Positions 1 through 12,985 of a stretch of DNA of 12,985 bases are shown piece after piece. The stretch's first letter is position 1, and every line of letters begins with the position of its first letter. The position numbers were made by a program, and so were the translations under genes. The notes under the pieces were generated by a model. It searched no databases. It was not told the DNA's origin and worked only from the letters and a program-made list of their open reading frames with translations. Source of the DNA: a virus (lineage: Duplodnaviria > Heunggongvirae > Uroviricota > Caudoviricetes); the IMG/VR virus record IMGVR_UViG_2645727562_000001, positions 1 through 12,985 of that record; one strand, given 5' to 3'.

Positions 1-50
1 CGCTCGACGCTTTCTTTCTGGTATTGAAGGGATTGGGATGGGCTAAGCAT
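1..50 (-). CDS. Start of a further minus-strand nin-region ORF that runs off the left edge
   Basis: ATG (reverse complement of 48-50) overlaps the stop of the upstream ORF at 50-52, continuing the chain of overlapping minus-strand genes. Only about 16 codons are visible. Confidence 0.2.
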   Translation of the reverse strand, partial: MLSPSQSLQYQKESVE

Positions 51-415
51 TATTGGATTCTCTGCATCATGAGAAAGACAATCATGGCGGCGCGGAGGGG
101 ATTTTCATGTATAGCTCGCTTAGATTTACAGTAGGCCACACCGCGTGCACCCCACTCGTCTTCATCGAGATTGATAATGCTAATCCTGTATTTTTCAATA
201 ATCGGCCATGAGTCTGCTGGGTTTGCGCATGGGTTAAAGGATCCGCGCTCAACTTCTACTTCAACTGCGTCTCCGTTTACAATGTCTCCCTCAAATGAGA
301 CAAACACCATATCGCCATTCTCACCTTCTTTGTAATCCGGTGATCCGTTATGAATGGCTTCGAATACCGCCACGTTAATTTCAAAATCACTTAACTGTGA
401 ATAATCCATTGTCAT
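50..415 (-). CDS. Hypothetical nin-region protein, about 121 aa
   Basis: Six-frame ORF 50..451. The internal ATG at 413-415 overlaps the NinE-like stop in an ATGA arrangement, so the likely start is Met13 of the listed ORF (MTMDYSQ...). No family recognised. Confidence 0.5.
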
Positions 416-588
416 TTCCTCGCACGATGTCTTAGCCACCGGATATCCCACAGGTGAGCCGTGTAGTTGAAGGTTTTTACGTCAGATTCTTTTGGGATTG
501 GCTTGCGTTTATTTCTGGAGCGTTTCGTTGGAAGGTATTTGCAGTTTTCGCAGATGATGTCGGTGAAACTTCGTCGCTGTCGCCTCAT
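412..588 (-). CDS. ninE: NinE-like small basic protein, 58 aa
   Basis: Internal Met of ORF 412..678 ([23 protein letters not shown]...[12 protein letters not shown]). Its ATG overlaps the methyltransferase stop (ATGA at 585-588). Position downstream of ninB and the Arg-rich, Cys-containing composition fit a NinE-family protein; assignment is from memory. Confidence 0.45.
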
Positions 589-1112
589 GCCGCCCTCCTG
601 ACGCCCTGCCCGATCGCCATCAATGCCGCTTTGGATACGGTAGTAAACATCCGTCGAGGACTGATGAACGGTCGCCAAATCAGCAGCATGGAGCCTTTGC
701 TGTTTCCCTTCTTCTCCAGCCCTGTCGATGGTTCGATAAAATTAATCCGTCCATCAGTGATAATGCGAACTTCGTCGACACTCTCCAGAGCCTTGCTGAA
801 CCATCCGACTGACATATCCTCTGGCACAAGCATAACTACCGTCTGTCGCTGTTGTATGCACTGCTCAGCGGCTTTTTCCACCCACGGCCTGATATTGCTG
901 TACGGTGGGTTATTCCAGATTGCACCGTGGCTTACCCACTCAGAATTGAGCGCGTCGTCGGCCTCAGTTAGCCAGTGAGCACACAGAGCATTTTTGTCGC
1001 TCGCTGCCGAATCCAGCCAGAATCCAAACTCAATATCCAGTGCATCAAAAAGCCAAAGCGGCGTTTGCCAGCAGTCCTTGTCGTGTGCCGGCGTATTTGA
1101 TTTGATAGTCAT
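585..1112 (-). CDS. Phage orphan DNA N6-adenine methyltransferase (Dam-like)
   Basis: ORF 585..1139 contains the NPPY catalytic motif (..[10 protein letters not shown]..) and a DCWQTP N-terminal motif typical of phage Dam-type N6-adenine methyltransferases. Likely start is ATG 1110-1112 (MTIKSN...), overlapping the ninB stop as ATGA. No restriction enzyme partner is adjacent. Confidence 0.7.
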
Positions 1113-1555
1113 GCAGCCTTCCCTTTTCGTTGTGACCATTCATACTCTCGCCGGGAGTCATCACTCCACCGCACGTTGCGCTCTGAGCCGAACCAAAACA
1201 TGATTTCGATAAGCTCAGTCATGCTGGCCTTTCGCATTTTGCTGGTACGCACGCCAAGCATGACAACGCCACCGTCGATACCAGGAACACTTCGTTGCTC
1301 CAGTTTTTTGGTCTTAAGCCACAGGGCAGTGAACAGGTCTTTCCAGTCTTCCGGTGCCAGCCGTTGACCATGCCATAGCACCTGACGCGAAACATCGTTC
1401 AGCATCGGCCACATACGGTCATTCTGCGCTTTGCTGCGTTTGGGTTCTTTAAGGTGGACTTCGTGGGGTGACTTGTCGTCGATGGGAAGTGAGAGTATTG
1501 CGTCTATGGCGTTATTTCTGATTGCTTCGTTGCGAAGCATGTATATTTGCTTCAT
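1109..1555 (-). CDS. ninB: NinB recombination protein
   Basis: 148-aa product aligns with recalled lambda NinB over the whole length, e.g. DVSRQVLWHGQRLAPEDWK against DVSRQVEWHGRWLDAESWK, and a matching C-terminus [19 protein letters not shown]. Confidence 0.75.
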   Translation of the reverse strand: MKQIYMLRNEAIRNNAIDAILSLPIDDKSPHEVHLKEPKRSKAQNDRMWPMLNDVSRQVLWHGQRLAPEDWKDLFTALWLKTKKLEQRSVPGIDGGVVMLGVRTSKMRKASMTELIEIMFWFGSERNVRWSDDSRREYEWSQRKGKAA

Positions 1556-1841
1556 CGAAATTCTTCTCTTTAATTCCAGCGGATCTGATAGCTTTCATTA
1601 CTGCAATTACCGTTTTGTCTCTCCCATCCTCATAACCCATCGCATAAGCACCTTCTTCACCATCTTTCCAAAAGTCGTCATTCGATTCGGGCCAGTCGAT
1701 ATCCAGTTCAATAGCTGCTCGCGATGCCTGCCATGCCTCCCATGCAATCTCGACCTTGATGTGCATAATCTTCATCACGTCACTTGAAACGTGATATTTG
1801 TTTTTAAACCATTCTTCAAACTGCTTTCTTGATTCGTCCAT
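1512..1841 (-). CDS. Hypothetical acidic protein, 109 aa
   Basis: Intact ORF with a GAGGG Shine-Dalgarno-like motif upstream of the ATG. Its 3' end overlaps the ninB start. No family recognised. Confidence 0.5.
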   Translation of the reverse strand: MDESRKQFEEWFKNKYHVSSDVMKIMHIKVEIAWEAWQASRAAIELDIDWPESNDDFWKDGEEGAYAMGYEDGRDKTVIAVMKAIRSAGIKEKNFDEANIHASQRSNQK

Positions 1842-1858
1842 CGATACTTACCCTCAGT

Positions 1859-2065
1859 TCAACTCACAAAACGCCACGCCATTTTTGCTACAGCGACAGG
1901 CATAACACCGATAATCACCCAGACAAATGCAGCGCCAAACAACGTATACCATGGGTCTTTACCGTCATTCACAAGACGAATGTAGCTATTCAGAACAATA
2001 AAAAACGTCAGAAGAATCCATCCAACGCCAACGCATTTGAATGCGACGAGCATAAACTCAGCCAC
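1859..2065 (-). CDS. Small hydrophobic protein with two predicted transmembrane helices, 64-68 aa
   Basis: ORF 1859..2065 has two long hydrophobic stretches (GVGWILLTFFIVL and FGAAFVWVIIGVMPVAV). GGGGGAGAG lies just upstream of a GTG at 2065; an in-frame ATG is at 2053. It begins immediately after the replication-operon terminator. Confidence 0.4.
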   Translation of the reverse strand: MAEFMLVAFKCVGVGWILLTFFIVLNSYIRLVNDGKDPWYTLFGAAFVWVIIGVMPVAVAKMAWRFVS

Positions 2066-2074
2066 GATTTACTC

Positions 2075-2113
2075 TCCCCCAAATAAAAAGGCCTGCGATT
2101 ACCAGCAGGCCTG
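2075..2113 (-). terminator. Rho-independent terminator ending the O-helicase operon
   Basis: Perfect 8-bp inverted repeat AGGCCTGC...GCAGGCCT (2089-2112). On the minus-strand transcript it is followed by UUUUUAUUU (reverse complement of 2080-2088), about 30 nt after the helicase stop. Confidence 0.5.
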
Positions 2114-2140
2114 TTATTAGCTCAGTGATGTAGATGGTCA

Positions 2141-3577
2141 TCAGAATCCTCCTTTCTTCTTGGACTGCGGTTCCTCGCGTTCACGGCGGCGCATTTCAGC
2201 AGACTGTTGGTCTGTGTCATAAATAGCGCCATTTGCCTGAATGCAATACACCGTGCCGGTATTGCCATGACGATTGAGGCGAAGGATTAGTTCGGTTTCA
2301 CCAGGAGGAACGCTGTCATCAAAAGCGCCTTCACGATGGATCCCCACCCAATAATCGCAATCCTGTTCAATCTGCCCTGTATCTCGTGAGTCACTTGGTA
2401 ATGGGCGTTTATTGGTTCGGCTTTCCAGTGCGCGGTTAAGCTGTGTCAGAAGCACAACAACGCAATCAAGCTCTTTGGCAAGGTTCTTCAGTCCTTTGGT
2501 GATCATGCCGTAAGCAAGGTCGTTGCGATCGGCCTTCTCAGCGGTCATTAGTGTCAGGTAATCGACCAGAATCATGCCAACACATCCTTTTTCTCGCTTG
2601 ATTCGACGGCTTTCGCTGACGATTTGAGCCAGAGATAATCCCGGCGTGTCGTCGATGTAAAGCAGGTCGATTTCACTCAAGCGATTGGCTGTTTCGATCG
2701 CCCTGTTGAAGTCACCATCGTAATCACCCTGATAGCCGTCATCAGCGTCATTTGTCGCCAGAAGGTAAAAAATATTGGGGTTAACACCTGACTTTTGCCC
2801 TACCAGTTTTTCCAGTATCTGGTCACCTGGCATTTCAAGGCTGAACATCAGAGCGGGCTTTTTCTCATGCACTGCGCAGTTGATTGCCATCTGGCTGTAT
2901 AGCGTCGTTTTCCCCATCTTAGGGCGAGCGCCAATGACAAACAAAGAGCCTTTCACCAGACCTTTCGGTGACAGCATCCTGTCCAGCGATGGGATCCCTG
3001 TGCTCATTCCTCGTTGTTCGCCTGACGGGTCAAATCGCTTCTCAAGGTCGCTAACCCAGTCTTCCATGACCTCACCAAATGAGCGAAGGCCGCGACGCGA
3101 TCCGGTTTTTGCATGGTCTGTCAGTTGCGTGAAAATCGCCTGAATAGCTTCGTACTTCTGCGTTGCAGTCATTCCGTTGCGGGAATAGAGCAATTCCGTC
3201 GCTTCAGTCATGCGGTTGATGGCGTAGCGTTCCATTGCGGTTTCACGAACCTGCATTGCATAGGCAACGATGTTTGCTGCGCTTGGCGTGTTCTTTGCGA
3301 TCTCAGCGATATAAGCAAAACCGCCAACAGACTCCGTTAACGATTTACGCTCCAGTTCATCGAAAAGCGTCAGGCCATCTACTGGCTTTTGCTCCCGGTG
3401 CATTATGGTTATTTCTTCGAAAAGGATTTTGTGTGGCCGGCTGTAAAATGAATCAGGCTTCAGCATCGCCAGAACTTTCTGGACGCGCTCACTGCTGTCA
3501 TCATCCAGAAGCAATCCACCAATCACCGCCTGCTCTGCCTCGATGCTATGGGGCGGCGCATAAAAATTATCGGTCAT
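2141..3577 (-). CDS. DnaB-family replicative DNA helicase
   Basis: Product of about 479 aa with an N-terminal DnaB-like domain (IEAEQAVIGGLLLD), Walker A (GARPKMGKTT) and a Walker B-like motif (ILVDYLTLM). ATG at 3575-3577 with GAGGGTG upstream overlaps the O-like gene 3' end; the six-frame track extends to a GTG at 3592. Confidence 0.85.
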   Translation of the reverse strand: MTDNFYAPPHSIEAEQAVIGGLLLDDDSSERVQKVLAMLKPDSFYSRPHKILFEEITIMHREQKPVDGLTLFDELERKSLTESVGGFAYIAEIAKNTPSAANIVAYAMQVRETAMERYAINRMTEATELLYSRNGMTATQKYEAIQAIFTQLTDHAKTGSRRGLRSFGEVMEDWVSDLEKRFDPSGEQRGMSTGIPSLDRMLSPKGLVKGSLFVIGARPKMGKTTLYSQMAINCAVHEKKPALMFSLEMPGDQILEKLVGQKSGVNPNIFYLLATNDADDGYQGDYDGDFNRAIETANRLSEIDLLYIDDTPGLSLAQIVSESRRIKREKGCVGMILVDYLTLMTAEKADRNDLAYGMITKGLKNLAKELDCVVVLLTQLNRALESRTNKRPLPSDSRDTGQIEQDCDYWVGIHREGAFDDSVPPGETELILRLNRHGNTGTVYCIQANGAIYDTDQQSAEMRRREREEPQSKKKGGF

Positions 3578-4532
3578 CGTGTTCACCCTCACGAACTTTC
3601 AGGTAGGTATTATCGTTAAGCAGGAAATCAAATCCCTTTTTGTGCCAGACGGTTCCGCGTTGATGGTTTGGGCGCTCTTCGAACATCCATCGGCAATTTT
3701 CGCCTACGTAGCTCAAATAATTTCTCCAGTCCTGCATCGTGAACCCATGCCCGTCAAGCTGGCGGGTTATCACTCCGGCTTTGCGCCAGAACGTTCGGAT
3801 CTGGTTTTTACGCTTGTCATTCAGTGCGCGGATTCTTGGCGCTTCAGGAAGGATTTCGTGGTAAGCATCGACAACATCCTGACAGCTAACGGAAGGTTTT
3901 TTCTTGTCAGACTTTTTGTCTGCTGCGGTACTCTCTAATACGTCAGTATTAGAGATAATATTATTATATTCTTTATCTGTGGTAATTTGCTGGTAATCTG
4001 CTGGTACAGTATTGCTTGCAGGCATTGGTATTGCTGGCTTTGAGGTGGTAATTTGCTGGTAATCTGCTGGTACAGTATTGCTTGCAGGCATTGGTATTGC
4101 TGGCTTTGAGGTGGTAATTTGCTGGTAATCTGCTGGTACAAAATTTGACTGATAATCGTCATATTTCTCTACCGAGAAAACTGAGAATTTACCGTGTGAA
4201 ACCCAGTCAATCATGCCGAGTTTTTTGAACTTTCTAAGCAGGTACTGAACGCGATCTGGTTTGAGTCCTGTTTCAAACGCCAGAGAGTTTCTACCGCCAA
4301 GTAGCTTCCCTCTGCCTACCAGAATTTCTCCTGCGTCAGTCATTACATACTCAGGCGTATGCTTTGCTTTGAGGATTAAGTGAACCCACAGATGCGCAGC
4401 TTCTGCGTCCTTGTAAAACGGCACATCCATAATTTTACGGTGCAGCAAGGCATACCCCTTACCGCTGCTTTGATGCGGTTGTTGTAGCCTTCTGGCCTCT
4501 CTGGCTTCGGCTAGATTAGATATGTTACTCAT
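3567..4532 (-). CDS. Replication initiator, lambda O-like, with internal tandem 22-aa repeats
   Basis: 321-aa ORF in the O position, immediately upstream of and overlapping the helicase gene. The central region has three copies of [22 protein letters not shown] encoded by the 66-bp DNA repeats. The conserved-looking C-terminal domain fits phage replication initiators. Confidence 0.7.
3979..4139. repeat. About 2.4 tandem copies of a 66-bp unit containing TGCTGGTA-type sub-repeats; putative replication origin iterons
   Basis: Exact 66-bp periodicity (copies begin at 3979, 4045 and 4111). Each unit holds several TGCTGGTA-like short repeats. A strongly AT-rich stretch lies next to it at 3935-3978. 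Iterons followed by an AT-rich region inside the initiator gene is the lambda ori architecture. Confidence 0.6.
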
Positions 4533-4671
4533 GACCTTTCTCCTTCTGCATCAGCTTCACTTTTTCCAACTCAGCCCGGAATCGACCAGGCTGCTTGAAG
4601 CTGGACAGGAAGCGATCACGTAGTATGTGTTTGTGAATTTTGTCCTGGTAAGGACTGAGTTGTTTTGTCAT
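4525..4671 (-). CDS. Unlisted small ORF between cII and the O-like gene, 48 aa, basic
   Basis: Reverse-complement reading gives AGGAG, six nt, then ATG (4669-4671): [48 protein letters not shown]. Its stop overlaps the O-like start codon. Below the length cutoff of the supplied track. Confidence 0.3.
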
Positions 4672-4703
4672 AATTACTCCTGTGGATTGATCCAGTAATT
4701 CCC

Positions 4704-5000
4704 TCAGAATTGCATATCAATTTGCTTAAAATCCTCGGTGGCGGCCGGGGATTTTTTCTTTGTGATTTCATCAAGCGCATACTTAAAAGCCCTGCTAATC
4801 GGACTGATGTCTGATGCCATTCCGAAAGCACACAAGACCGAAGCAATAAATCTCCAGTCCGTTCTGCTTATCTTCGATTCATGACAGCCAATCATCTTTG
4901 CCAGACCGCGCTGGGTAAGTGTTGATAGGTTGATGAGTAAATCTGTTTCTGCGCGATCAACGTCACGCTGTGATAGTTTGCTGTAACTTGTTCGTTCCAT
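4704..5000 (-). CDS. cII: CII-like transcriptional activator (divergent from lambda CII)
   Basis: 98 aa in the position downstream of cro and nutR. C-terminus [18 protein letters not shown] resembles lambda CII NKKRPAATERSEQIQMEF, and a central HTH-like segment is present. Confidence 0.7.
4741..4770 (+). ncRNA. 3' terminator hairpin of a putative OOP-like antisense RNA overlapping the cII 3' end
   Basis: Plus-strand hairpin ATCCTCGGTGGCGGCCGGGGAT (4741-4762) followed by TTTTTTCTTT, antisense to the last roughly 20 codons of cII. This is the position and form of the lambda OOP RNA terminator. The 5' end and promoter are not confidently placed. Confidence 0.4.
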
Positions 5001-5085
5001 TTCTTAAGATTTCCAATAGTGAATAGTTAGTTGAAAGGTATGCGTGGAAACGCATATGGCCTTAGTTGGTCAGATATCTTGGGAC

Positions 5086-5131
5086 TCGCTTTGTCAGCGA
5101 CGTAGGACGAATGTCCATTGTGAAAATAGCG
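5086..5131 (-). promoter_or_regulatory. nutR: boxA-like CGCTATTTT and boxB hairpin with GACAA loop
   Basis: On the minus-strand transcript just after the cro stop: CGCTATTTT (reverse complement of 5123-5131) lies where lambda has boxA CGCTCTTAC, then UCGCU-GACAA-AGCGA (reverse complement of 5086-5100). The same hairpin recurs at nutL. The loop matches the P22-type boxB as recalled. Confidence 0.5.
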
Positions 5132-5138
5132 GTGTTAC

Positions 5139-5348
<210 letters not shown>

Positions 5349-5363
5349 TTAGTACATGCAACC

Positions 5364-5392
5364 ATTATCACCGCTAGAGGTAAAATAGTCAA
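5364..5392 (-). promoter_or_regulatory. pR promoter driving cro
   Basis: Minus-strand -35 TTGACT (reverse complement of 5387-5392) and -10 GATAAT (reverse complement of 5364-5369), overlapping OR1/OR2 exactly as in lambda. Confidence 0.85.
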
Positions 5393-5404
5393 CACGCACG
5401 GTGT

Positions 5405-5429
<25 letters not shown>
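5366..5429. promoter_or_regulatory. Right operator OR1-OR2-OR3, lambda type
   Basis: Three 17-bp operator half-palindromes: OR1 5366-5382 (TATCACCGCTAGAGGTA), OR2 5390-5406 (CAACACGCACGGTGTTA), OR3 5413-5429 (TATCCCTTGCGGTGATA). OR2 and OR3 match lambda; OR1 differs at one position from the canonical sequence as recalled. Confidence 0.9.
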
Positions 5430-6153
<724 letters not shown>

Positions 6154-6160
6154 CACGTAA

Positions 6161-6598
6161 ATGATTAAAGAACGTATTTCTTATATCATTCCGATTGCGA
6201 TGGATGAAGGCAACCCAGTAACTCCAGTTCTTATCTATGAAATGGATAAAGACTCCCATGAAGTGGATCTATCATTTGGCGCTTTTTTTATCGGCCTTAA
6301 GGCTACAAAAAAATATTCCATAGGCATTGAGGTTTTCAATGCTCAAGAAATACCGATACCAATTGACACAAAACTGTACTCCAACCATAAGTTTTTTACG
6401 GTAGCAGAAGCCAACGATGGAGAAACCATCGTATCAACTTCTATGAGAATTAACTTCCCAAGGGTGAAAATTATCAAGCCTGGGATATTCGAAGTTAGAG
6501 CATCACTGGTTAATCCTGATAAAGGCGAAGTAATTGATGTAAAAAGTTCGTTTTTTGACGTGAAGATAACAGGATCAGTTCGCGATGAGTTTAGATAA
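6161..6598 (+). CDS. Unknown soluble protein, 145 aa; first gene of the cargo cassette in the rexA position
   Basis: ORF starts 8 nt after the cI stop codon. Markedly AT-rich compared with cI. No transmembrane segment or recognisable catalytic motif; alternating hydrophobic pattern suggests a beta-rich fold. The downstream gene overlaps it by 14 nt. Confidence 0.6.
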   Translation: MIKERISYIIPIAMDEGNPVTPVLIYEMDKDSHEVDLSFGAFFIGLKATKKYSIGIEVFNAQEIPIPIDTKLYSNHKFFTVAEANDGETIVSTSMRINFPRVKIIKPGIFEVRASLVNPDKGEVIDVKSSFFDVKITGSVRDEFR

Positions 6599-6956
6599 CA
6601 AGGTTGCTCAGCTTCGTCCAAATCAAAACATATCTCGCCCAATTGGACACTATTCCACTGATGATGCATACTCACGGCATGGTGGAGGAAACGGCGGAGG
6701 TAACATGCTTGAGGCTAGAGTTGCAAAGCTAGAGTCTGATGTTGAATACATCAAGCGCGATCTCGCTGAAGTAAAGTCAGATATAAAATCTGTAGATTCT
6801 CGTCTGTCAGGTATTGAGACAAGCATTAGCTCAGCAAAAATCACCATCAAGGCATCTGCGGTCGTTGTCAGTTTCGTGTTCGCATTTTGCGCCTACATTT
6901 TTGGAAGTTATGTTTCCAAAATCCTTGATGCCTTAAACGGACTCGTTCTTAAGTAA
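6585..6956 (+). CDS. Coiled-coil protein with a single C-terminal transmembrane helix (XhlA-like architecture); second cargo gene in the rexB position
   Basis: The 123-aa ORF overlaps the upstream gene. An alternative ATG at 6705 is preceded by GGAGG at a 4-nt spacing and would give an 83-aa product starting MLEARVAKLESD. Features: Gly-rich low-complexity N-terminus (HGGGNGGGN), heptad-like coiled coil (LEARVAKLESDVEYIKRDLAEVKSDIKSVDSRLSGIE), then a hydrophobic anchor (ASAVVVSFVFAFCAYIFGSYV). Confidence 0.6.
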   Translation: MSLDNKVAQLRPNQNISRPIGHYSTDDAYSRHGGGNGGGNMLEARVAKLESDVEYIKRDLAEVKSDIKSVDSRLSGIETSISSAKITIKASAVVVSFVFAFCAYIFGSYVSKILDALNGLVLK

Positions 6957-6962
6957 CACACA

Positions 6963-6990
6963 ACCCGGCCTCAGCGCCGGGTTTTCTTTG
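6963..6990 (+). terminator. Rho-independent terminator of the cI-cargo operon (tImm-like)
   Basis: Stem ACCCGGC / GCCGGGT with a 6-nt loop, followed by TTTCTTTG, 7 nt after the cargo stop codon. The flanking sequence resembles the lambda region between rexB and OL as recalled. Confidence 0.6.
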
Positions 6991-7146
6991 CCTCACGATC
7001 CCCTTCACCCAATAACACATAACCAATTGTATTTATTTGAAAATTAATAGATACAACTCACTAAACATCGCAATTCAGATCTCTCGATCACCTCCCAAGC
7101 CACACACCCCTGCAAAAAAATAAATCTATATAAAAAACATACAGAT

Positions 7147-7209
7147 AACCATCTGCGGTGATAAATTATCTCTGGCGGTGTTGACATAAATACCACTGGC
7201 GGTGATACT
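7147..7209 (+). promoter_or_regulatory. Left operator OL3-OL2-OL1 with pL promoter, lambda type
   Basis: OL3 7147-7163 (AACCATCTGCGGTGATA), OL2 7167-7183 (TATCTCTGGCGGTGTTG), OL1 7191-7207 (TACCACTGGCGGTGATA). pL -35 TTGACA 7181-7186 and -10 GATACT 7204-7209. Matches the canonical lambda pL/OL sequence; pL reads rightward in this window. Confidence 0.92.
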
Positions 7210-7277
7210 AAACACATCAGCAGGACGCACTACTCACCAGGGCGGTGAATATACAACGATTCGAATATGAATCTACG

Positions 7278-7292
7278 GCGCTGACAAAGCGC
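7278..7292 (+). promoter_or_regulatory. nutL boxB hairpin (GCGCU-GACAA-AGCGC)
   Basis: Perfect 5-bp stem with 5-nt GACAA loop about 60 nt downstream of the pL start, matching the hairpin at nutR and the P22-type boxB as recalled. No convincing boxA is seen upstream. Confidence 0.55.
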
Positions 7293-7302
7293 AATAACCA
7301 AA

Positions 7303-7445
7303 GTGAACTTTGGGGTGTGGTGAAGGGTTCATGGACGGGAATATGTCGCACGTAAAGCGGCGAGGCCTGCGGGACTATTGCCGAATTGAAGTAGGCCGAA
7401 ACAGGTCGAAATGGGTCTCCCACCTACCACACCACCAAAGTTCAT
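7303..7445 (+). promoter_or_regulatory. Long-range stem in the N leader, adjacent to the N ribosome-binding site (RNase III-site analogue)
   Basis: TGAACTTTGGGGTGTGGTG (7303-7322) is complementary to CACCACACCACCAAAGTTCA (about 7425-7444) with one bulge, enclosing about 100 nt. The N Shine-Dalgarno GGAGG (7448-7452) lies directly 3' of the stem. Lambda has an analogous GGGGTGTGTG / CACACACCACC leader stem. Confidence 0.5.
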
Positions 7446-7457
7446 CAGGAGGTCTAT

Positions 7458-7841
7458 ATGACACGCAGAACTCAGTTCAAAGGCAATTCACGTTCTCGTC
7501 GTCGTGAGCGTTTAAAGGCAAAGGCATTAGCTAACGGCGTACTGGCCCGCGAAGAAGCAATAAGTTCAGAAGTATTACACCGCCCTACTCTAAGCAGAGC
7601 GCAGATTCAGGCTAAAGGTACTCACGAAACGCCTGAGCGCATAGAAGACGCTAAGCCAATTAAGTTCATGGCACAGGACGTGATCTGGCAACAGAAAGAA
7701 TACAGACGCAATCTGGAGAGAGCGGCCATTGTGTACGCGAATGAGTTTGGGCATAGGCAACCAGAAACTGGTGTATGTCTTCCAAATGTAGCTCTTTACG
7801 CGGCAGGCTACAGGAAATCAAAACAACTGACGGCGAGGTAA
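7458..7841 (+). CDS. N: N-family transcription antiterminator, non-lambda type
   Basis: 127-aa protein directly downstream of pL and nutL with GGAGG Shine-Dalgarno. N-terminal arginine-rich motif (GNSRSRRRERLKAKALA). C-terminus LPNVALYAAGYRKSKQLTAR resembles the P22 N-like (gp24) C-terminus as recalled. Not similar to lambda N. Confidence 0.85.
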   Translation: MTRRTQFKGNSRSRRRERLKAKALANGVLAREEAISSEVLHRPTLSRAQIQAKGTHETPERIEDAKPIKFMAQDVIWQQKEYRRNLERAAIVYANEFGHRQPETGVCLPNVALYAAGYRKSKQLTAR

Positions 7842-7843
7842 TT

Positions 7844-8236
7844 ATGGGTCAGGAAGAAAAATATGAGCTTAAAAAGCTCATTGAAGAAGACGCCATAGAA
7901 GAAATTGCAGCATTAACAACAGCTATAAATAATATTAGGTATGCGCTAAATACGCTTATCTCCTCATGCGACAAAAATAGCAGGGAATTTTTGATACTTG
8001 GCGCAGCTCTAGGAATAGTTGATGCGGCAACGCTTCACCTAATTACTCATGACGATATTCTTATTGAGCCGTATGAAACATTACTGCTTGTCAGGCAAAA
8101 AATGGCTGATGCCGCAGCAAATGGAGACCTTCAACTTTACATCGACTTAAGGAAAGTATTAAGGCGAATGGTCAGAACTGAAGGAGATATCCCACTGAGC
8201 GATGCTAAACAAGGCATACAAGCAAAGCTGGAATGA
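7844..8236 (+). CDS. Hypothetical helical protein, 130 aa, AT-rich, immediately downstream of N
   Basis: ATG at 7844, 2 nt after the N stop, preceded by GAGG (MGQEEKYELKKLIEE...). The supplied ORF 7775..8236 overlaps N in another frame, so the shorter start is preferred. AT-rich codon usage. No family recognised. Confidence 0.55.
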   Translation: MGQEEKYELKKLIEEDAIEEIAALTTAINNIRYALNTLISSCDKNSREFLILGAALGIVDAATLHLITHDDILIEPYETLLLVRQKMADAAANGDLQLYIDLRKVLRRMVRTEGDIPLSDAKQGIQAKLE

Positions 8237-8296
8237 CCATTATCCTGATGAAGTATCGAAAGCACAGTCAGCAATTAGCAAAGCTCTTGGGGAAGA

Positions 8297-8457
8297 ATGA
8301 TGAATAAGAAATACATTGTTGAAGTTATAGAGCGAGAAACGAAAGAAGTAATCAAACATTTCGAATTTGATAATTATAGAAAACCTGACCGCGTAGAAGA
8401 AGGATTGTTGCGACAAAGTAATCTCGAAAAATTTGATGTTGTCATGCGATGCGAATA
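8297..8457 (+). CDS. Unlisted small ORF, 53 aa
   Basis: GGGGAAGA then ATGATG at 8297: MMNKKYIVEVIERETKEVIKHFEFDNYRKPDRVEEGLLRQSNLEKFDVVMRCE. AT-rich. Below the track length cutoff. Confidence 0.35.
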
Positions 8458-8551
8458 AGCGCCTATAGCAGATTTACGAGTCTGCTATGTGAGCAATGTC
8501 GCTCGTAACTAAACAGGAGCCGACTTGTTCTGATTATTGGAAATCTTCTTT

Positions 8552-8578
8552 GCCCTCCAGTGTGAGGGCCTTTTTATA
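8552..8578 (+). terminator. Rho-independent terminator within the pL operon (tL1-like)
   Basis: Stem GCCCTC / GAGGGC with a 6-nt loop (8552-8569) followed by CTTTTTAT, lying between the small post-N genes and the cIII-like gene. Presumably read through by N-modified polymerase. Confidence 0.55.
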
Positions 8579-8641
8579 TGCATACCAATAACGCTTCACT
8601 CGAGGCGTTTTCGTTATGCAATCAAACAGAAGGAGCATCCT

Positions 8642-8812
8642 ATGCAACAGTTCGCTATTGCAGGGGCGGCATCGGTTCGCCCTTTCAACCCGATTTTATC
8701 GGTGCAGCATTCACGAAAAAATATTTTAACCGGAGCAGACTTTAAACAACCTCGCGTTAAGAGCTTGCTGGATCGTCTTGTTGAGTTTCTGAATCAAAAG
8801 GTACAGCCATGA
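8642..8812 (+). CDS. cIII: CIII-like protein (putative FtsH inhibitor), 56 aa
   Basis: Internal start of ORF 8537..8812 with AGGAG 7 nt upstream; the listed N-terminal extension spans the terminator. N-terminus MQQFAIAG resembles lambda CIII MQYAIAG, and there is an amphipathic segment (KSLLDRLVEFLNQ). Similarity beyond the N-terminus is weak. Confidence 0.5.
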   Translation: MQQFAIAGAASVRPFNPILSVQHSRKNILTGADFKQPRVKSLLDRLVEFLNQKVQP

Positions 8813-8973
8813 AAAAACCAACTTACGAGGAACTGGAAGAAGCCCTGAAAGAGCTTAGAAGAATGGCTTTCGCCAGACGCACTAACTCTCACAACTGCGG
8901 CCCATTTCAGTACTCTGATTTATGCGAGGACATCATTGAGGTAACTCAACTGATTAAGGTCGTTAAGCAATGA
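8809..8973 (+). CDS. Unlisted small ORF, 54 aa, in the kil position
   Basis: ATGA overlap with the cIII-like stop. Product MKKPTYEELEEALKELRRMAFARRTNSHNCGPFQYSDLCEDIIEVTQLIKVVKQ. No similarity to lambda Kil as recalled. Confidence 0.35.
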   Translation: MKKPTYEELEEALKELRRMAFARRTNSHNCGPFQYSDLCEDIIEVTQLIKVVKQ

Positions 8974-9077
8974 GCATTGCGGATACATGGTCAGACGAAG
9001 AATTCATTCGTCAGATGAAAGAAATGCTCAATCAGCACAAAGAACAGGAGAAAGATGATGATTCTGACTCTGAATGA
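8970..9077 (+). CDS. Unlisted very small acidic ORF, 35 aa
   Basis: ATGA overlap with the previous ORF (MSIADTWSDEEFIRQMKEMLNQHKEQEKDDDSDSE). Its 3' end overlaps the next gene's start region. Weak support. Confidence 0.2.
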   Translation: MSIADTWSDEEFIRQMKEMLNQHKEQEKDDDSDSE

Positions 9078-9366
9078 TAAGCGTGAAATATCGCAAATCA
9101 TCGCAAGTTTTACCGATGAAGATTACGAACGAATCAACAGTGAAGTTGATCGTCTCTGCAAACGTTGCGACCCAATAAGCGAAATGCTTCGCTCATATAA
9201 ACCAGATGAACACACTAAGGACGCTATCGACTGGCTGGAAGATGATGACTGTAACTATCAGGAAAAAGCCGCTGAATGGTTCTGGGATGCAATAACCGAA
9301 AGAGTTAAGGCTGAATATGCCTTCGCAATATTCAAACGCAGACATATTTATGGAGAAGCTGCATGA
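9055..9366 (+). CDS. Hypothetical protein, 103 aa
   Basis: AGGAG 5 nt upstream of ATGATG at 9055. Its stop overlaps the RecT start as ATGA. No family recognised. Confidence 0.5.
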   Translation: MMILTLNDKREISQIIASFTDEDYERINSEVDRLCKRCDPISEMLRSYKPDEHTKDAIDWLEDDDCNYQEKAAEWFWDAITERVKAEYAFAIFKRRHIYGEAA

Positions 9367-10265
9367 GCAATATCGTTGAATTCGTTAAACAGCAAGAGCA
9401 GTTATTCTGCGGAGCATTGACTGAACAGACGGTGACATGGGCTAAGGAAAGCCAGTTTGCAATTCAGTATTTCCAGAAAAACGATTACCTGGCTAAAACA
9501 GCACTGGCAAATCCAACCAGCGCACAGAACGCCATCATCAATGTTGCGGCGATCGGCATCACCTTAAACCCGGCCAGCAAACTGGCTTATCTGGTTCCTC
9601 GCGACGGCATGGTGTGCCTTGATATCAGTTACATGGGATTACTTCATCTTGCGCAATCGACAGGATCAATTAAGTGGGGGCAATGCAAACTGGTGTACTC
9701 AAACGACACCTATGAATCAAATGGCCTTGATTCAGCACCAACCCACAAATACAACGCATTTGGTGAGCGAGGCTCTATTGTTGGAGGTTATTGCACGGTT
9801 AAAACAGCAGATGGTGACTACCTGACTGAAGAAATGAGTCTGGCAGAAATTAAAGCTGTGGAAGCAACGAGCAAGGCAAAGAATGGACCGTGGAAAACAT
9901 TCTGGGAAGAGATGGCGCGTAAAACAATAGTTAAACGCGCCAGCAAATACTGGCCTAAAGCCCAGCGACTGGATAATGCCATTCACCTTCTTAACGAAGA
10001 TGAAGGTATGCATCAGGAACCAGTTATGCCGCACAAATCAGAGGAAGATATCCGCGAAGATGAACGGAAACGCCAGCAGGAAATAATGGATAAAGCACAA
10101 CTTCTTTGCGATGAAATGGCTCAGGCAGAAAACATGGATGATTTGAAGCGATATTTTGCAGAAGCATATCGCCTGACATCTGGAATGAAATTGCAGCAGA
10201 ACGTACAAGCCATTTACATAGAATGCAAAGCGAAGCTGGAGGTTGCCAGTGAGCAAACTGTATGA
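9363..10265 (+). CDS. recT: RecT-family single-strand annealing recombinase
   Basis: 300-aa product. C-terminal segment NGPWKTFWEEMARKTIVKRASKYWP aligns with Rac RecT NGPWVTHWEEMAKKTAIRRLFKYLP as recalled. Occupies the bet position of the pL operon. Confidence 0.8.
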   Translation: MSNIVEFVKQQEQLFCGALTEQTVTWAKESQFAIQYFQKNDYLAKTALANPTSAQNAIINVAAIGITLNPASKLAYLVPRDGMVCLDISYMGLLHLAQSTGSIKWGQCKLVYSNDTYESNGLDSAPTHKYNAFGERGSIVGGYCTVKTADGDYLTEEMSLAEIKAVEATSKAKNGPWKTFWEEMARKTIVKRASKYWPKAQRLDNAIHLLNEDEGMHQEPVMPHKSEEDIREDERKRQQEIMDKAQLLCDEMAQAENMDDLKRYFAEAYRLTSGMKLQQNVQAIYIECKAKLEVASEQTV

Positions 10266-10731
10266 AATTGCCAATGAATACGCAAAATTGATGGATTCAG
10301 ATTTAGAGCCAGAGATGATTGCTGACACAATAGAAGGCATGGAAGGAGAATTTACCGATAAAATAGAGCAACTTCTTGCCATTATTAAAAATGAATCTGG
10401 TTATGCTGAACGCCTCAAGGACGAGGCAAAGTCACTGAATGAACGAGCAGCAGTAATTCAAAATAAGATTGATAGCATTATGGCATATATAGCGTCATCG
10501 CTTGAAATGGTTGGCAAGAAAAAGATTCGAGCAGGTATTCACCAGGTAACAATCCGCAAACCGTCAGAAACTGTAGAAATCATCGACTCAAGCGCCATTC
10601 CTCCTGAATACGTTGAGTTTGAAACGACAATTAAAGCCGACAAGTTGGCAATCAAACACCAACTAAAAGCAGGAATAAATATCCCCGGCGCTCAACTCAA
10701 AGTTGGGAAACCTTCACTTCTTATCAAATAA
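10249..10731 (+). CDS. Coiled-coil protein, possibly siphovirus Gp157-like, about 160 aa
   Basis: ORF 10243..10731. GGAGG (10237-10241) precedes a GTG at 10249, which is the preferred start; the first in-frame ATG is at 10291. Family assignment is tentative and from memory. Confidence 0.45.
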   Translation: MSKLYEIANEYAKLMDSDLEPEMIADTIEGMEGEFTDKIEQLLAIIKNESGYAERLKDEAKSLNERAAVIQNKIDSIMAYIASSLEMVGKKKIRAGIHQVTIRKPSETVEIIDSSAIPPEYVEFETTIKADKLAIKHQLKAGINIPGAQLKVGKPSLLIK

Positions 10732-10742
10732 CGGTATCGCCT

Positions 10743-11057
10743 ATGAAAAAGACTCCATGGGAGAAATGGGAAGTCGATTTCTTGCGCGAAGTAGCGGCGA
10801 CAATGCCAGTTGAAGTTATCGCTGAAAAACTGGAAAGGACTGAAAAAGCAGTTATGGCGAAAGCAACAAGGATTGGCGCTGACATTGTTAGCCGACTTCG
10901 TGGAAGACGCTGGACAAGAGCCGAAGTATCACTTTTCGGTAAGTTCTCCGCAGAAGAAATAGCAATTGCAACCTGCCGCTCAATTTATTCAGTAAGAGCT
11001 ATGCGATACAAGCTAAAAAAACTCGATGAAGAAAGAGCAGGCATACAAATAAATTAA
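10743..11057 (+). CDS. Hypothetical basic protein, 104 aa, with two similar helical half-repeats
   Basis: Intact ORF. Internal duplication-like pattern (W..W/E..L......E.IA......RT/S..A.......) suggests a tandem helix-turn-helix-like fold. Inference only. Confidence 0.45.
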   Translation: MKKTPWEKWEVDFLREVAATMPVEVIAEKLERTEKAVMAKATRIGADIVSRLRGRRWTRAEVSLFGKFSAEEIAIATCRSIYSVRAMRYKLKKLDEERAGIQIN

Positions 11058-11073
11058 CATGGAGTAATTAACA

Positions 11074-11355
11074 ATGAAGCTAAACATCGACCTCGGCAAA
11101 TACGTTATTACCGGAACCAAATACGATCTGATTCTTAGCGAAAGAGGAATTATCAAAGAAGGCGAGAATGCAGGGAAAGAAACACTAAGCCGTATCGGTT
11201 ATTACAGCAAGTTTGAGCATCTGGTTAAAGAGTTATGCAACCGTGAAATCCTGTTATCTCAGGCGCAGACGCTACAGGATATTCAGCAGCATATCGAGAC
11301 TTTAGGTGTGTCACTTAGCATGGCTATTGACCAGTTCGTGGAGAGTAAATCATGA
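11074..11355 (+). CDS. Hypothetical protein, 93 aa
   Basis: Intact ORF with GGAG-like motif upstream. Its stop overlaps the next small ORF as ATGA. Confidence 0.5.
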
Positions 11356-11516
11356 GAGGTCTTGCATACAATCCCGGCATTCTTCCGGCAGAAATGATTA
11401 TTCGCCAACGCGTAAAGCCAATGCCATCGAGAGAGGAATTGCTTAAGAGAAATTCTTTTCCATCAGTGAATCAAAACAAATATCTGAATGCGATGTGGCG
11501 GAGTGGGAAGAAATGA
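11352..11516 (+). CDS. Unlisted small ORF, 54 aa
   Basis: ATGA overlap at both ends (start 11352, stop 11514-11516 overlapping the ATG at 11513): [54 protein letters not shown]. Confidence 0.3.
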
Positions 11517-11989
11517 AACAAATGTCACTAATTGAGATGGATGGATTTCTGAAAGGTAAATGCATCCCAAGTGATTTAAAGGTTAACGAAACAAACGCTG
11601 AATATCTGGTGCGTAAGTTCGGTGAACTTGAATCAAAACTAGAAACAGCGTTGCGTGAGTGTCGTTCTGCTGGAATCACGATTGATAACCTTGAGGCTAA
11701 ATGCGCGAAGATGGCTGCTGAAAATACCTCACTTAAGCAATCTGAGAAGGAATTTAATGACTTTTGTCGTGAGGAGTTTAGCGAATGGGAAGATGATGTT
11801 ACTGAAACCCCAGCCACCGATGCTTTTCTGGCTGAAGTACGGGCGCAGGCGTTTAATGACCTTTGCTCGGCGTTCGTTAAACACGCGAATCTCGCGGGAA
11901 TGGATGATGGTGAGCTAGTGAGGCTTAAATATGCGACGGACGCCCTGCTGCATTGTGCGGAACAGCTTCGCAAAGGAGTTCAGTCATGA
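11513..11989 (+). CDS. Hypothetical acidic helical protein, about 158 aa
   Basis: ORF 11495..11989. Preferred start is ATG 11513 ([12 protein letters not shown]...), overlapping the upstream stop. Its stop overlaps the next ATG. Confidence 0.5.
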
Positions 11990-12219
11990 GCATCCGAACT
12001 GAACATGGATTTGGTCCTTCAACGGTCGAAGTCGAATGGCTTGATGATTGCCCTAAGTGCCAGCACGGCAAAGCCAAGGTAACAGGATGGTCGGTAACCA
12101 AAGATTCTTTGTGGGCGGGTGATGAGGCCGTTTGTTCCAAATGCGGTCACAAAGGTGAAATCGATGCTGATGGAGAGAATGCCTGGGTGGAATGGGACGA
12201 AATCGAGGAGGCACAATGA
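11986..12219 (+). CDS. Small zinc-ribbon protein, 77 aa (two CxxC pairs)
   Basis: Internal ATG of ORF 11953..12219 overlapping the upstream stop (ATGA). Contains CPKC and CSKC motifs about 30 residues apart. Confidence 0.5.
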   Translation: MSIRTEHGFGPSTVEVEWLDDCPKCQHGKAKVTGWSVTKDSLWAGDEAVCSKCGHKGEIDADGENAWVEWDEIEEAQ

Positions 12220-12971
12220 GCAACATCGACATCGACACACTGGCGCTGCGTGAGGCGGCAGAACGTGCAATTCCGGCAATGGAACGCCTGTTAATGTTGC
12301 CAGCTGATGATGATTTGTTAACTGAACAGGAACTTAAGGATTACGGTGTGGATATTGATGCGCTCAACGCCTTCAAATTTCTGACCGGACCAGAAACCGT
12401 GTTGGCACTACTGGATGAACGGGAAAGAAACCAGCAATACATCAAACGCCGCGACCAGGAGAACGAGGATATTGCGCTAACGGTAGGGAAGCTGAGAGTT
12501 GAGCTTGAGGAAGTAAAACAACACGCTGAAGAATTATCCGAAACCAAGGCTGTTCGTAACCAATGGCGGCCAGATCTTTGCCCAATAACCGGACGTGCAT
12601 TTTTCATGTGGATTGAGCATCCAACATTGGGAAATGTGCCGACATATGGTGGCCCATTAGATAGTTACACCATTCCAACAAAGGACGGTGACGGTGAGTT
12701 TTCATGTGAGCGTTACGATCATGATTTTGGCGGTTGGGTAGAAAGCGAATGTCTTGGGTTATATCTGATTGATGATAGAGAACAATGCAGGGTCTACGAA
12801 CTGGAGGAACGCGTTAAGGAACTGGATGCTCGGGAAATATCGCTCCCGGAACGTAGCAGCATGCTTCATCGAACAGATTTTCACGATGATTACCAAACGG
12901 TAATGGCATACAAAGTTTCTGAAGTCATCGATGCAATCCGCGCTACTGGCATTCGCATCAAAGGAGAGTGA
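12216..12971 (+). CDS. Ead/Ea22-like family protein, about 251 aa
   Basis: GAGGAGG precedes the ATG at 12216 (MSNIDIDTLALREAAE...), which overlaps the upstream stop. N-terminal coiled-coil and acidic composition fit the Ead/Ea22-like proteins common in enterobacterial lambdoid prophages; assignment is from memory. Confidence 0.5.
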   Translation: MSNIDIDTLALREAAERAIPAMERLLMLPADDDLLTEQELKDYGVDIDALNAFKFLTGPETVLALLDERERNQQYIKRRDQENEDIALTVGKLRVELEEVKQHAEELSETKAVRNQWRPDLCPITGRAFFMWIEHPTLGNVPTYGGPLDSYTIPTKDGDGEFSCERYDHDFGGWVESECLGLYLIDDREQCRVYELEERVKELDAREISLPERSSMLHRTDFHDDYQTVMAYKVSEVIDAIRATGIRIKGE

Positions 12972-12985
12972 TATGAGCGCTATAA

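Follow-up and report, generated by a model that had tools for sequence, protein, structure and literature searches.

The DNA analyzed here, referred to as the window, is a stretch of 12,985 nucleotides from a virus of the class Caudoviricetes (IMG/VR record IMGVR_UViG_2645727562_000001, positions 1 to 12,985) and corresponds to the early region of a lambdoid prophage, reversed with respect to the orientation of lambda. Behind its lambda-type cI gene, the rexA-rexB genes are exactly replaced by an unrelated pair of overlapping genes, here called A and B, which occupy positions 6161-6956 and encode a small soluble protein and a predicted tail-anchored coiled-coil membrane protein, respectively. 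We propose, with a probability of roughly 40%, that A and B constitute a lysogen-expressed phage-exclusion system made up of a sensor and a membrane effector, which would resemble RexAB in its action while being unrelated to it in descent.

The limits of the replacement could be placed within a few nucleotides. A first-pass annotation, made by a model from the sequence alone, had described cI, OR and OL as lambda-type, and this was borne out: cI is identical to lambda cI at 235 of 237 residues, positions 5300-6149 share 98-99.9% nucleotide identity with lambda, HK97 and CL707 in BLASTN comparisons, and OR, OL1-3 and PL have the sequence and spacing found in lambda (for the OL sites 20 and 24 nt, equal to the annotated lambda distances). 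Homology to these three phages ends at 6149-6153, at the cI stop codon (TAA, 6151-6153), and is regained at 6959-6966, at the first base (6962) of a hairpin (AACCCGGCCTCAGCGCCGGGTT, followed by a T-run; 6962-6983) that is the same as that of the lambda tImm terminator. From 6966 to 7839, a segment comprising the tImm-N interval and N, the window is 98% identical to HK97 at the nucleotide level. Between 6150 and 6961, BLASTN detected no nucleotide homology to lambda, HK97 or CL707. The breakpoints thus agree with the earlier description of a cassette bounded by the cI stop codon and a lambda-like terminator, and they indicate that ~812 bp stands in for the ~1.4 kb of rexA-rexB in lambda. The ATG of A (6161) follows the cI stop codon after a gap of 7 nt, and the ATG of B (6585) lies upstream of the stop codon of A (TAA, 6596-6598), giving an overlap of 14 nt; the stop codon of B is at 6954-6956.

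The absence of RexA and RexB between cI and the terminator, also noted in the first pass, was supported by protein comparisons. In a five-sequence database, BLASTP aligned A to RexA with an E value of 38, indicating no homology, and B to RexB with 26% identity over 49 residues and an E value of 0.03, which is not significant. Together with the absent nucleotide homology and the lack of a PADLOC match, these results rule out homology of A and B to RexA and RexB. Sequence scans revealed no promoter-like or terminator-like site between cI, A and B and no terminator ahead of tImm, in agreement with the assignment of the cassette to the cI operon. Since only 7 nt separate cI from A and no terminator precedes tImm, the cassette is likely expressed during lysogeny from PRM; in lambda, the cI transcript of lysogens includes rexAB (PMC7067206). 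The cassette had in addition been called much more AT-rich than cI, which is fair for A (37.2% GC) and only modestly so for B (42.7%) when compared to cI (45.5%); the GC content of the cassette as a whole is 40.1% and that of the window 45.5%.

The interval between the repressor and N genes of lambdoid phages is described as mosaic and as a place where accessory genes reside (Degnan et al. 2007, as relayed in PMC7067206 and PMC8585504). A survey of this locus among phages of lambda immunity, which the first-pass annotation had suggested, identified at least seven cargoes between the same cI and tImm flanks: rexAB, HK97 gp49/48, hicAB (in mEp234 and HK106), a 301-residue open reading frame (ORF) in CL707, ORFs in HK244/HK542, an NYN gene in ev099, and A-B. 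Thus, the replacement of rexAB stands but its presumed singularity does not, all the more so because the homologous genes 44/45 of phage epsilon34 were described in 2008. These comparisons place the cassette among the accessory ("moron") cargo found at the cI-N mosaic hotspot of lambdoid phages. A locus 100% identical to the cassette is present in the enteropathogenic Escherichia coli (EPEC) strain E2348/69, with cI through B at positions 2619618-2621134 of NC_011601.1, and its annotation lists the two genes as hypothetical; the cI side of this locus is identical to the window as well, and the genes on the PL side are different. The cassette was found in 16 of 5426 complete E. coli genomes and the whole window in none of them (best coverage, 70%), and the window as aligned is a mosaic. 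The E. coli backbones nearest to the window carry rexA-rexB at the same position, suggesting that the swap occurred recently on a shared background.

Protein A lacks a hydrophobic span (maximum KD19, 0.81), consistent with its first description as a soluble protein of 145 residues; the accompanying statement that it belongs to no recognizable family did not hold. A falls into phrog_5893 (E value 8.5e-65), and its family expanded from 20 close clusters to 87 with a profile and to 121 representatives with an exhaustive search, about 105 of which are single-domain proteins of 130-155 residues. An AlphaFold model based on a 45-sequence alignment is eight-stranded and all-beta (pLDDT 90.7, pTM 0.85), and a fold search of the PDB returned matches only to generic immunoglobulin (Ig)-like/E-set folds. 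We are therefore confident, on the strength of the model, that A is a generic Ig-like/E-set beta-sandwich with no enzymatic signature. In the BFVD, the nearest viral neighbors of this fold are uncharacterized phage proteins of similar size, including a 134-residue protein from phage A403 of the Gram-positive Anoxybacillus (TM-score 0.63-0.68). At the sequence level, A and five distant relatives had no Pfam or NCBIfam match, and a search of PDB sequences gave no match for A and one insignificant match for its profile. Hence, the profile and structure searches suggested in the first pass yielded PHROG families for both proteins and an Ig-like fold for A, but no assignment in Pfam, NCBIfam or the defense profiles considered below. 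A is also fast-evolving, with a mean pairwise identity of 0.25 versus 0.48 for the start of the B coiled coil. The family phrog_3556, which attracted attention as a potential natural A-B fusion because of its profile length of 276, was not confirmed as such, since no fused protein was found among phage genomes.

Protein B is a member of phrog_6136 (E value 3.6e-46), with 73 homologous clusters, and many of its homologues carry the NCBI label "hemolysin XhlA". The assignment of A and B to PHROG families and their many homologues in conserved synteny indicate that both are real genes. From its N-terminus, B comprises a disordered tail (N-tail), a GGGNGGG hinge, a coiled coil, one transmembrane segment and a C-terminal tail of 13 residues; a conserved aromatic residue precedes the hinge. 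The heptad register is unbroken from residue 39 to 92 (7.5 heptads), and 13 of the 16 a/d positions are L, I, V or M, compared to 6.4 +/- 0.9 (maximum 10) in shuffled sequences. A KD19 of at least 1.6 is reached by a single span, residues 92-110, and in the AlphaFold model residues 1-39 are disordered while one helix extends over residues 40-121. These features uphold the earlier view of an overlapping gene for a coiled-coil protein with one C-terminal membrane anchor. Because B has no signal peptide and its transmembrane segment is at the extreme C-terminus, it is predicted to adopt an N-in topology with the tail in the periplasm.

The likeness of B to XhlA, proposed in the first pass, is upheld as architecture and not as family membership. 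XhlA from the Bacillus subtilis element PBSX (PF10779) is similarly small and has a coiled coil at its N-terminus and one transmembrane segment at its C-terminus; PBSX lysis requires this membrane protein along with the holin XhlB and the endolysin XlyA (PMC5589764). By analogy, this role gives a hint of the effect that a B-like protein might have on a membrane. Nevertheless, B scored only 19.3 bits (E value 0.0013) against the Pfam XhlA profile, for which the gathering threshold is 34.7 bits, and although XhlA matched 25 of 32 B-family members (best E value 8.3e-6), the unrelated coiled-coil family FlaC_arch matched 27 of the 32. In addition, no holin or endolysin gene adjoins a B-like gene in any locus examined, all of which are repressor or accessory operons. 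B further differs from XhlA in having the N-tail and the glycine hinge, and in being encoded with a soluble partner in a lysogenic repressor operon rather than in a late holin-endolysin cassette. Given the sub-threshold scores across the family and the lack of lysis genes nearby, membership of B in the XhlA family was rejected and XhlA was retained as an architectural analogue. A search of PDB sequences with the B profile recovered generic coiled coils only (Lpp, sigma-1 and GCN4).

An A-like gene is followed by a B-like gene in all 12 cases examined, and the order of repressor, A-like gene and B-like gene recurs behind repressors of several kinds. This order was observed in epsilon34, in Enterobacter with both S24-type and short helix-turn-helix (HTH) repressors, in Klebsiella with two further S24 repressors, and in Kluyvera, Serratia, Symbiopectobacterium, Phaseolibacter and an Enterobacteriaceae metagenome-assembled genome. 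Viewed from B, an A-like protein of 139-160 residues always precedes the B homologue in the six named genera and in other loci, and the gene immediately before it is usually a repressor, either S24-type or short HTH. Although the A-like partners have diverged strongly (20-31% identity), BLASTP and profile matches connect them; length, fold and architecture are preserved while A and B diverge to 20-30% identity, and the overlap of the two genes is preserved among relatives (epsilon34, Enterobacter).

The closest comparison is provided by epsilon34, whose genes 45/44 (as well as genes 40/39 of g341c and their counterparts in NM-3) are true homologues of A and B. The A proteins are 74% identical, the N-tail and hinge of the B proteins are ~75% identical, the overlap is likewise 14 nt, and the pair lies directly after the repressor and before OL/PL, as in the window. 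In contrast, the epsilon34 repressor differs in specificity from the window cI, and the effector half of its B protein beyond the hinge (coiled coil, transmembrane segment and tail) is unrelated to that of the window. In 2008, Villafane et al. (PMC2629481) already referred to these epsilon34 genes as "like rexA and rexB". The nucleotide homology to epsilon34 (74%) is continuous from window positions 5745-6153, which encode the S24 peptidase half of cI and align with positions 3560-3968 of the epsilon34 stretch, through A and into B. This continuity raises the possibility that the C-terminal domain of the repressor and the cassette may have traveled together while the DNA-binding halves differ. 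Outside phage loci, a Deferribacteraceae metagenome-assembled genome encodes a 122-residue protein (positions 2858-3226 of the stretch) with the B coil motif ARIAKLESDVGYIK (profile E value 4e-12) and a C-terminal transmembrane segment; its gene is flanked by an ATP-synthase b-like and a delta-like gene, the vicinity is free of prophage genes, and the protein could be either a non-phage family member or a chance coiled-coil match.

The comparison of B-like proteins revealed modularity centered on the hinge. Homology to epsilon34 stops at window position 6701, directly past the hinge, and two E. coli genomes match positions 6161-6701 only (positions 1-541 of the cassette as query). In phage ENT1, an S24 repressor is followed by a 127-residue protein with a CxxC…CxxC pattern and then by a B protein with the window-type coiled coil, transmembrane segment and tail. 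Zinc-ribbon-like CxxC partners also precede B-like genes in Pseudomonas phage PS-1, Salmonella phage 29485, Pseudoalteromonas, Shewanella and Thorsellia, and none of these alternative partners matched a known family. The N-tails of the ENT1 and 29485 proteins are alike and their partners are of the same type, whereas their effector halves are different. Judging from these junctions, the hinge is a recurrent recombination joint. Among 12 pairs, the identity of A correlated with that of the B N-tail (Spearman 0.37, Mantel p ~0.002) and not with that of the coiled coil (0.04) or of the transmembrane segment and tail (-0.05). The coiled-coil start, "EARVAKLESDV.YIK", is kept from Enterobacterales to Pseudomonas, Shewanella, Pseudoalteromonas and alpha- and betaproteobacteria.

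B-like genes also occur at other accessory sites. In Salmonella phage UPF_BP1 (positions 2313-3285 of the stretch), the B-like gp48 (149 residues) is located in a P22-type ant/immI moron between gene 16 and arc/ant, where it is preceded by an unrelated 94-residue protein and a Mnt-like gene misannotated as "partition protein ATPase". In Salmonella phage 29485 (positions 2553-3733 of the stretch), a zinc-ribbon-like partner and a B-like gene are grouped with a gene for a predicted lipoprotein (MKKVVALALGALMLSGC...), and the genes for tail assembly and the tape measure lie directly downstream; this small cluster looks like a moron inserted among structural genes.

Taken with the position of the cassette, these properties suggest how an A-B exclusion system might operate. 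A and B would form a translationally coupled two-gene accessory module of the cI (PRM) operon, and this location implies that both proteins would be made continuously in the lysogen. B would be tail-anchored in the inner membrane, with its N-tail, hinge and oligomerizing coiled coil in the cytoplasm and its C-terminal helix in the membrane. A would act as a cytoplasmic Ig-like binding domain that grips the N-tail of B and either keeps B inactive or provides specificity. A trigger from an infecting phage, recognized by A or by the A/N-tail complex, would cause the coiled coils of B to reorganize such that the membrane helices impair the integrity of the inner membrane, as a holin or XhlA might, and this damage would abort the infection.

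Several known systems provide precedents for parts of this scheme. RexA/RexB, which exclude T4 rII and other phages by causing membrane potential to be lost, occupy the identical slot, after the same cI, up to the same tImm and co-oriented with cI; each pair consists of one soluble and one inner-membrane protein (the location of B being predicted), and the proposed logic, by which a cytoplasmic sensor activates a membrane effector, would be alike. The components themselves are dissimilar: RexA has 279 residues, compared to the 145-residue Ig-like sandwich of A, with which it shares no sequence similarity, and RexB, with 144 residues, several hydrophobic spans and four transmembrane segments, is polytopic, in contrast to the one C-terminal transmembrane segment that follows a long coiled coil in B. 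BstA of the Salmonella prophage BTP1 is also encoded directly downstream of a repressor; it shares the repressor promoter, its synteny is conserved across diverse prophages, and it is a validated abortive-infection defense (PMC8585504, PMC7067206). Unlike A and B, BstA is a single large protein that acts at phage DNA replication sites, and it has no sequence, architectural or membrane likeness to them. HK97 gp49 (88 residues, soluble) and the overlapping gp48 (216 residues), at positions 1680-2584 of the HK97 stretch, are found in the same slot behind the same cI, in a layout analogous to A-B. Gp48 has a coiled-coil-like stretch, one transmembrane segment (residues 152-170) and, after it, a long Ser/Thr/Gln/Pro-rich extension; homology of gp48 to B was unsupported (10.7 bits against the B profile), and no described function was found for gp48. 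Finally, genes 43/44 of Gordonia phage CarolAnn and 30/31 of Mycobacterium phage Sbash reportedly lie near the repressor, are expressed from the prophage and encode one cytoplasmic and one membrane protein, which together exclude heterotypic phages; they are said to have been compared with RexAB despite being unrelated to it in sequence. No sequence relationship of these pairs to A-B is expected, and their hosts and the architectures of their membrane proteins are unlike those of A-B.

An abortive-infection or exclusion function, suggested already in the first pass, is plausible and is strengthened by this comparative context. It is the best-supported reading of the cassette, given the position in the cI operon, the precedent of RexAB and BstA at this site, the synteny across immunity types, the association of the B effector with swappable partners, the presence of B-like genes at other accessory sites (UPF_BP1 and 29485), the XhlA-like architecture of B and the fast-evolving binding fold of A. 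Several results nevertheless weigh against it. Searches of the window proteins and ten variants or partners with the PADLOC-DB v2.0.0 hidden Markov models returned no match for A and only weak coiled-coil matches for B (CorA-like, E value 0.004; LmuB, JetC and DndD), so that no defense-system model matches either protein; together with the negative Pfam and NCBIfam searches, this agrees with the initial failure to match the pair to a described system. In the literature searched, no paper was found that reports a function for either family or cites WP_000588958, WP_000050903 or the PHROG identifiers. The XhlA score of B is below threshold and on par with its generic coiled-coil matches. The transmembrane segments and tails of B-like proteins are of at least four unrelated sequence types, and a specific pore would explain this no better than a plain membrane anchor. 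Adjacency on the DNA confounds the co-variation between A and the B N-tail. The rarity of the cassette may be added to this list, although it is neutral with respect to a role in defense. The DefensePredictor supplements contain neither WP_000588958 nor WP_000050903, and HepS (PMC13043305) proved to be unrelated.

Some of the same observations would be expected if A-B excluded superinfecting phages at DNA entry, which we consider unlikely. In such a scheme, B would be a tether or oligomerization scaffold for a variable binder, either A or a zinc-ribbon partner, that is held at the inner membrane and there blocks ejection or tape-measure proteins of the phage or a host channel, and the cell would survive. 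The lack of conservation of the B transmembrane segment and C-terminal tail across subfamilies is as expected for an anchor, the partner has the character of a fast-evolving, swappable specificity element, and A is a pure binding fold. Moreover, B-like pairs are found in the P22-type ant/immI moron, a region that in P22 holds sieA, and beside the predicted lipoprotein of phage 29485. However, the coiled-coil start is kept across proteobacterial classes, suggesting more than passive tethering, and PHROG and PADLOC searches revealed no similarity of A or B to known exclusion proteins.

Somewhat less likely still is a role in lysogenic conversion or addiction, in which A-B would be a membrane toxin with its antidote that stabilizes the prophage, or an envelope factor that aids the host in stress or virulence. 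The toxin-antitoxin genes hicAB occupy the same site in mEp234 and HK106, the cassette is carried by the pathogen EPEC E2348/69, the combination of a small membrane protein and a soluble partner is reminiscent of a toxin and its antidote, and the "hemolysin XhlA" label is attached to many B homologues. This label, however, is based on a sub-threshold coiled-coil match, and Pfam and NCBIfam searches assigned A and B to no toxin-antitoxin or virulence family. The soluble-first gene order, the strict coupling and the swapping of partners are better suited to the evolution of a sensor and effector. Since toxin-antitoxin and abortive-infection functions overlap, conversion or addiction is only partly a rival to the proposed exclusion system.

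It appears slightly less likely again that A-B serves the prophage's own cycle (the lysis-lysogeny switch, induction or lysis timing) without targeting other phages, even though the pair is tightly linked to a variety of repressor genes, in UPF_BP1 to the immI Arc/Ant and Mnt-like genes, and the homology with epsilon34 runs without interruption from the C-terminal domain of cI into the cassette. The architectural likeness of B to XhlA, which is needed for PBSX lysis (PMC5589764), and a report of RexA acting in the lambda switch (PMC11077077) could be taken in the same sense. Nevertheless, close relatives with the same cI function with other cargo or with rexAB at this site, indicating that A-B is dispensable for the switch, and the genes belong to the lysogenic transcript rather than to a late lysis cassette, with no holin or endolysin adjoining. 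The idea that the two ORFs have no function and are filler, or remnants in decay, at a site of frequent recombination, to which the rarity of the cassette and its GC content below that of the flanks might point, is effectively refuted by the conservation pattern: both ORFs are intact, they are paired across genera with length, fold and architecture kept at 20-30% identity, the overlap is conserved, and A gives a confident structure model.

Both the mosaic nature of the cI-N interval and the comparison of the homologous epsilon34 pair with rexAB (PMC2629481) were known before. What is new, and apparently undescribed, is a family of hinge-coil-anchor effectors with interchangeable partners in repressor operons across Proteobacteria. 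We tentatively regard A-B as the founding case of a widespread modular family of prophage exclusion systems, in which a tail-anchored coiled-coil effector with a hinge-linked adaptor tail would be combined, through recombination at the hinge, with interchangeable cytoplasmic sensors (Ig-like sandwich, zinc-ribbon-like and others), and which would functionally replace RexAB in phages of lambda immunity. No part of a prophage is expressed more reliably than the repressor operon, and RexAB and BstA, the two systems validated at the slot downstream of the repressor, both abort infection (PMC8585504). As an isogenic natural replacement of rexAB behind the cI of lambda, the cassette lends itself to direct tests in the phage genetic background that is understood best. 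If a role in defense is true, it would provide a new effector type, the tail-anchored coiled coil, an unusually clear example of how sensor modules are exchanged at a defined hinge, and a function for many enterobacterial proteins now labeled "hemolysin XhlA" or "hypothetical". If the pair instead acts on the prophage switch or the host envelope, this would also be new biology of a conserved pair present in pathogens (EPEC E2348/69 and Salmonella).

Table 1. Features of the cI-N region and its surroundings in the window.
Feature	Position	Strand	Basis or remark
Replication and nin genes	left part of window	-	
cII	4704-5000	-	
cro	5139-5339	-	
OR/PR/PRM control region, lambda sequence, cro-cI interval	5340-5439		operator and PRM annotation of aligned lambda/CL707 records
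PR-like promoter	5392-5364	-	
cI, lambda immunity type, 237 residues, operon gene 1	5440-6153	+	Pfam HTH_3 2.6e-11, Peptidase_S24 6.8e-29
Gene A, 145 residues, soluble Ig-like beta-sandwich, phrog_5893	6161-6598	+	proposed partner/sensor for the B N-tail
Gene B, 123 residues, predicted tail-anchored coiled-coil membrane protein, phrog_6136	6585-6956	+	proposed membrane effector
B residues 1-32, disordered, fast-evolving N-tail	6585-6680	+	AlphaFold (AF2) pLDDT ~50, no secondary structure; variable in alignments
B residues 33-39, GGGNGGG hinge	6681-6701	+	G35, G37 and G38 invariant or nearly so
B residues 40-91, coiled coil, highly conserved start EARVAKLESDVEYIKRD	6702-6857	+	heptad analysis
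B residues 92-110, single transmembrane helix AVVVSFVFAFCAYIFGSYV	6858-6914	+	KD19 2.11; helical in AF2 model
B residues 111-123, C-terminal tail SKILDALNGLVLK, predicted periplasmic	6915-6953	+	near-invariant within window-type subfamily
tImm intrinsic terminator, hairpin 6962-6983 and T-run	6962-6992	+	8-bp stem, 6 GC pairs; annotated Timm in aligned CL707 record
OL3	7147-7163	+	read from sequence
OL2	7167-7183	+	read from sequence
OL1	7191-7207	+	read from sequence
PL, TTGACA...GATACT	7181-7209	+	promoter score 10/12
N antiterminator, HK97 type, 127 residues, first PL gene, outside cassette	7458-7841	+	Pfam N_peptide 1.7e-15

An Rfam search of the window identified no RNA family. Within the cassette, an antisense ORF of 110 residues (6343-6675, minus strand) and a weak promoter-like site (6339-6310) are probably chance features of AT-rich DNA. 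Elsewhere in the window, a perfect 66-bp tandem repeat of 2.5 copies (3979-4140), with nested 11- and 33-bp periodicities, is located inside an O-like replication gene (3567-4532, minus strand) and encodes a repeated peptide. As in lambda, this is probably the iteron array of the origin, contained within the O gene.

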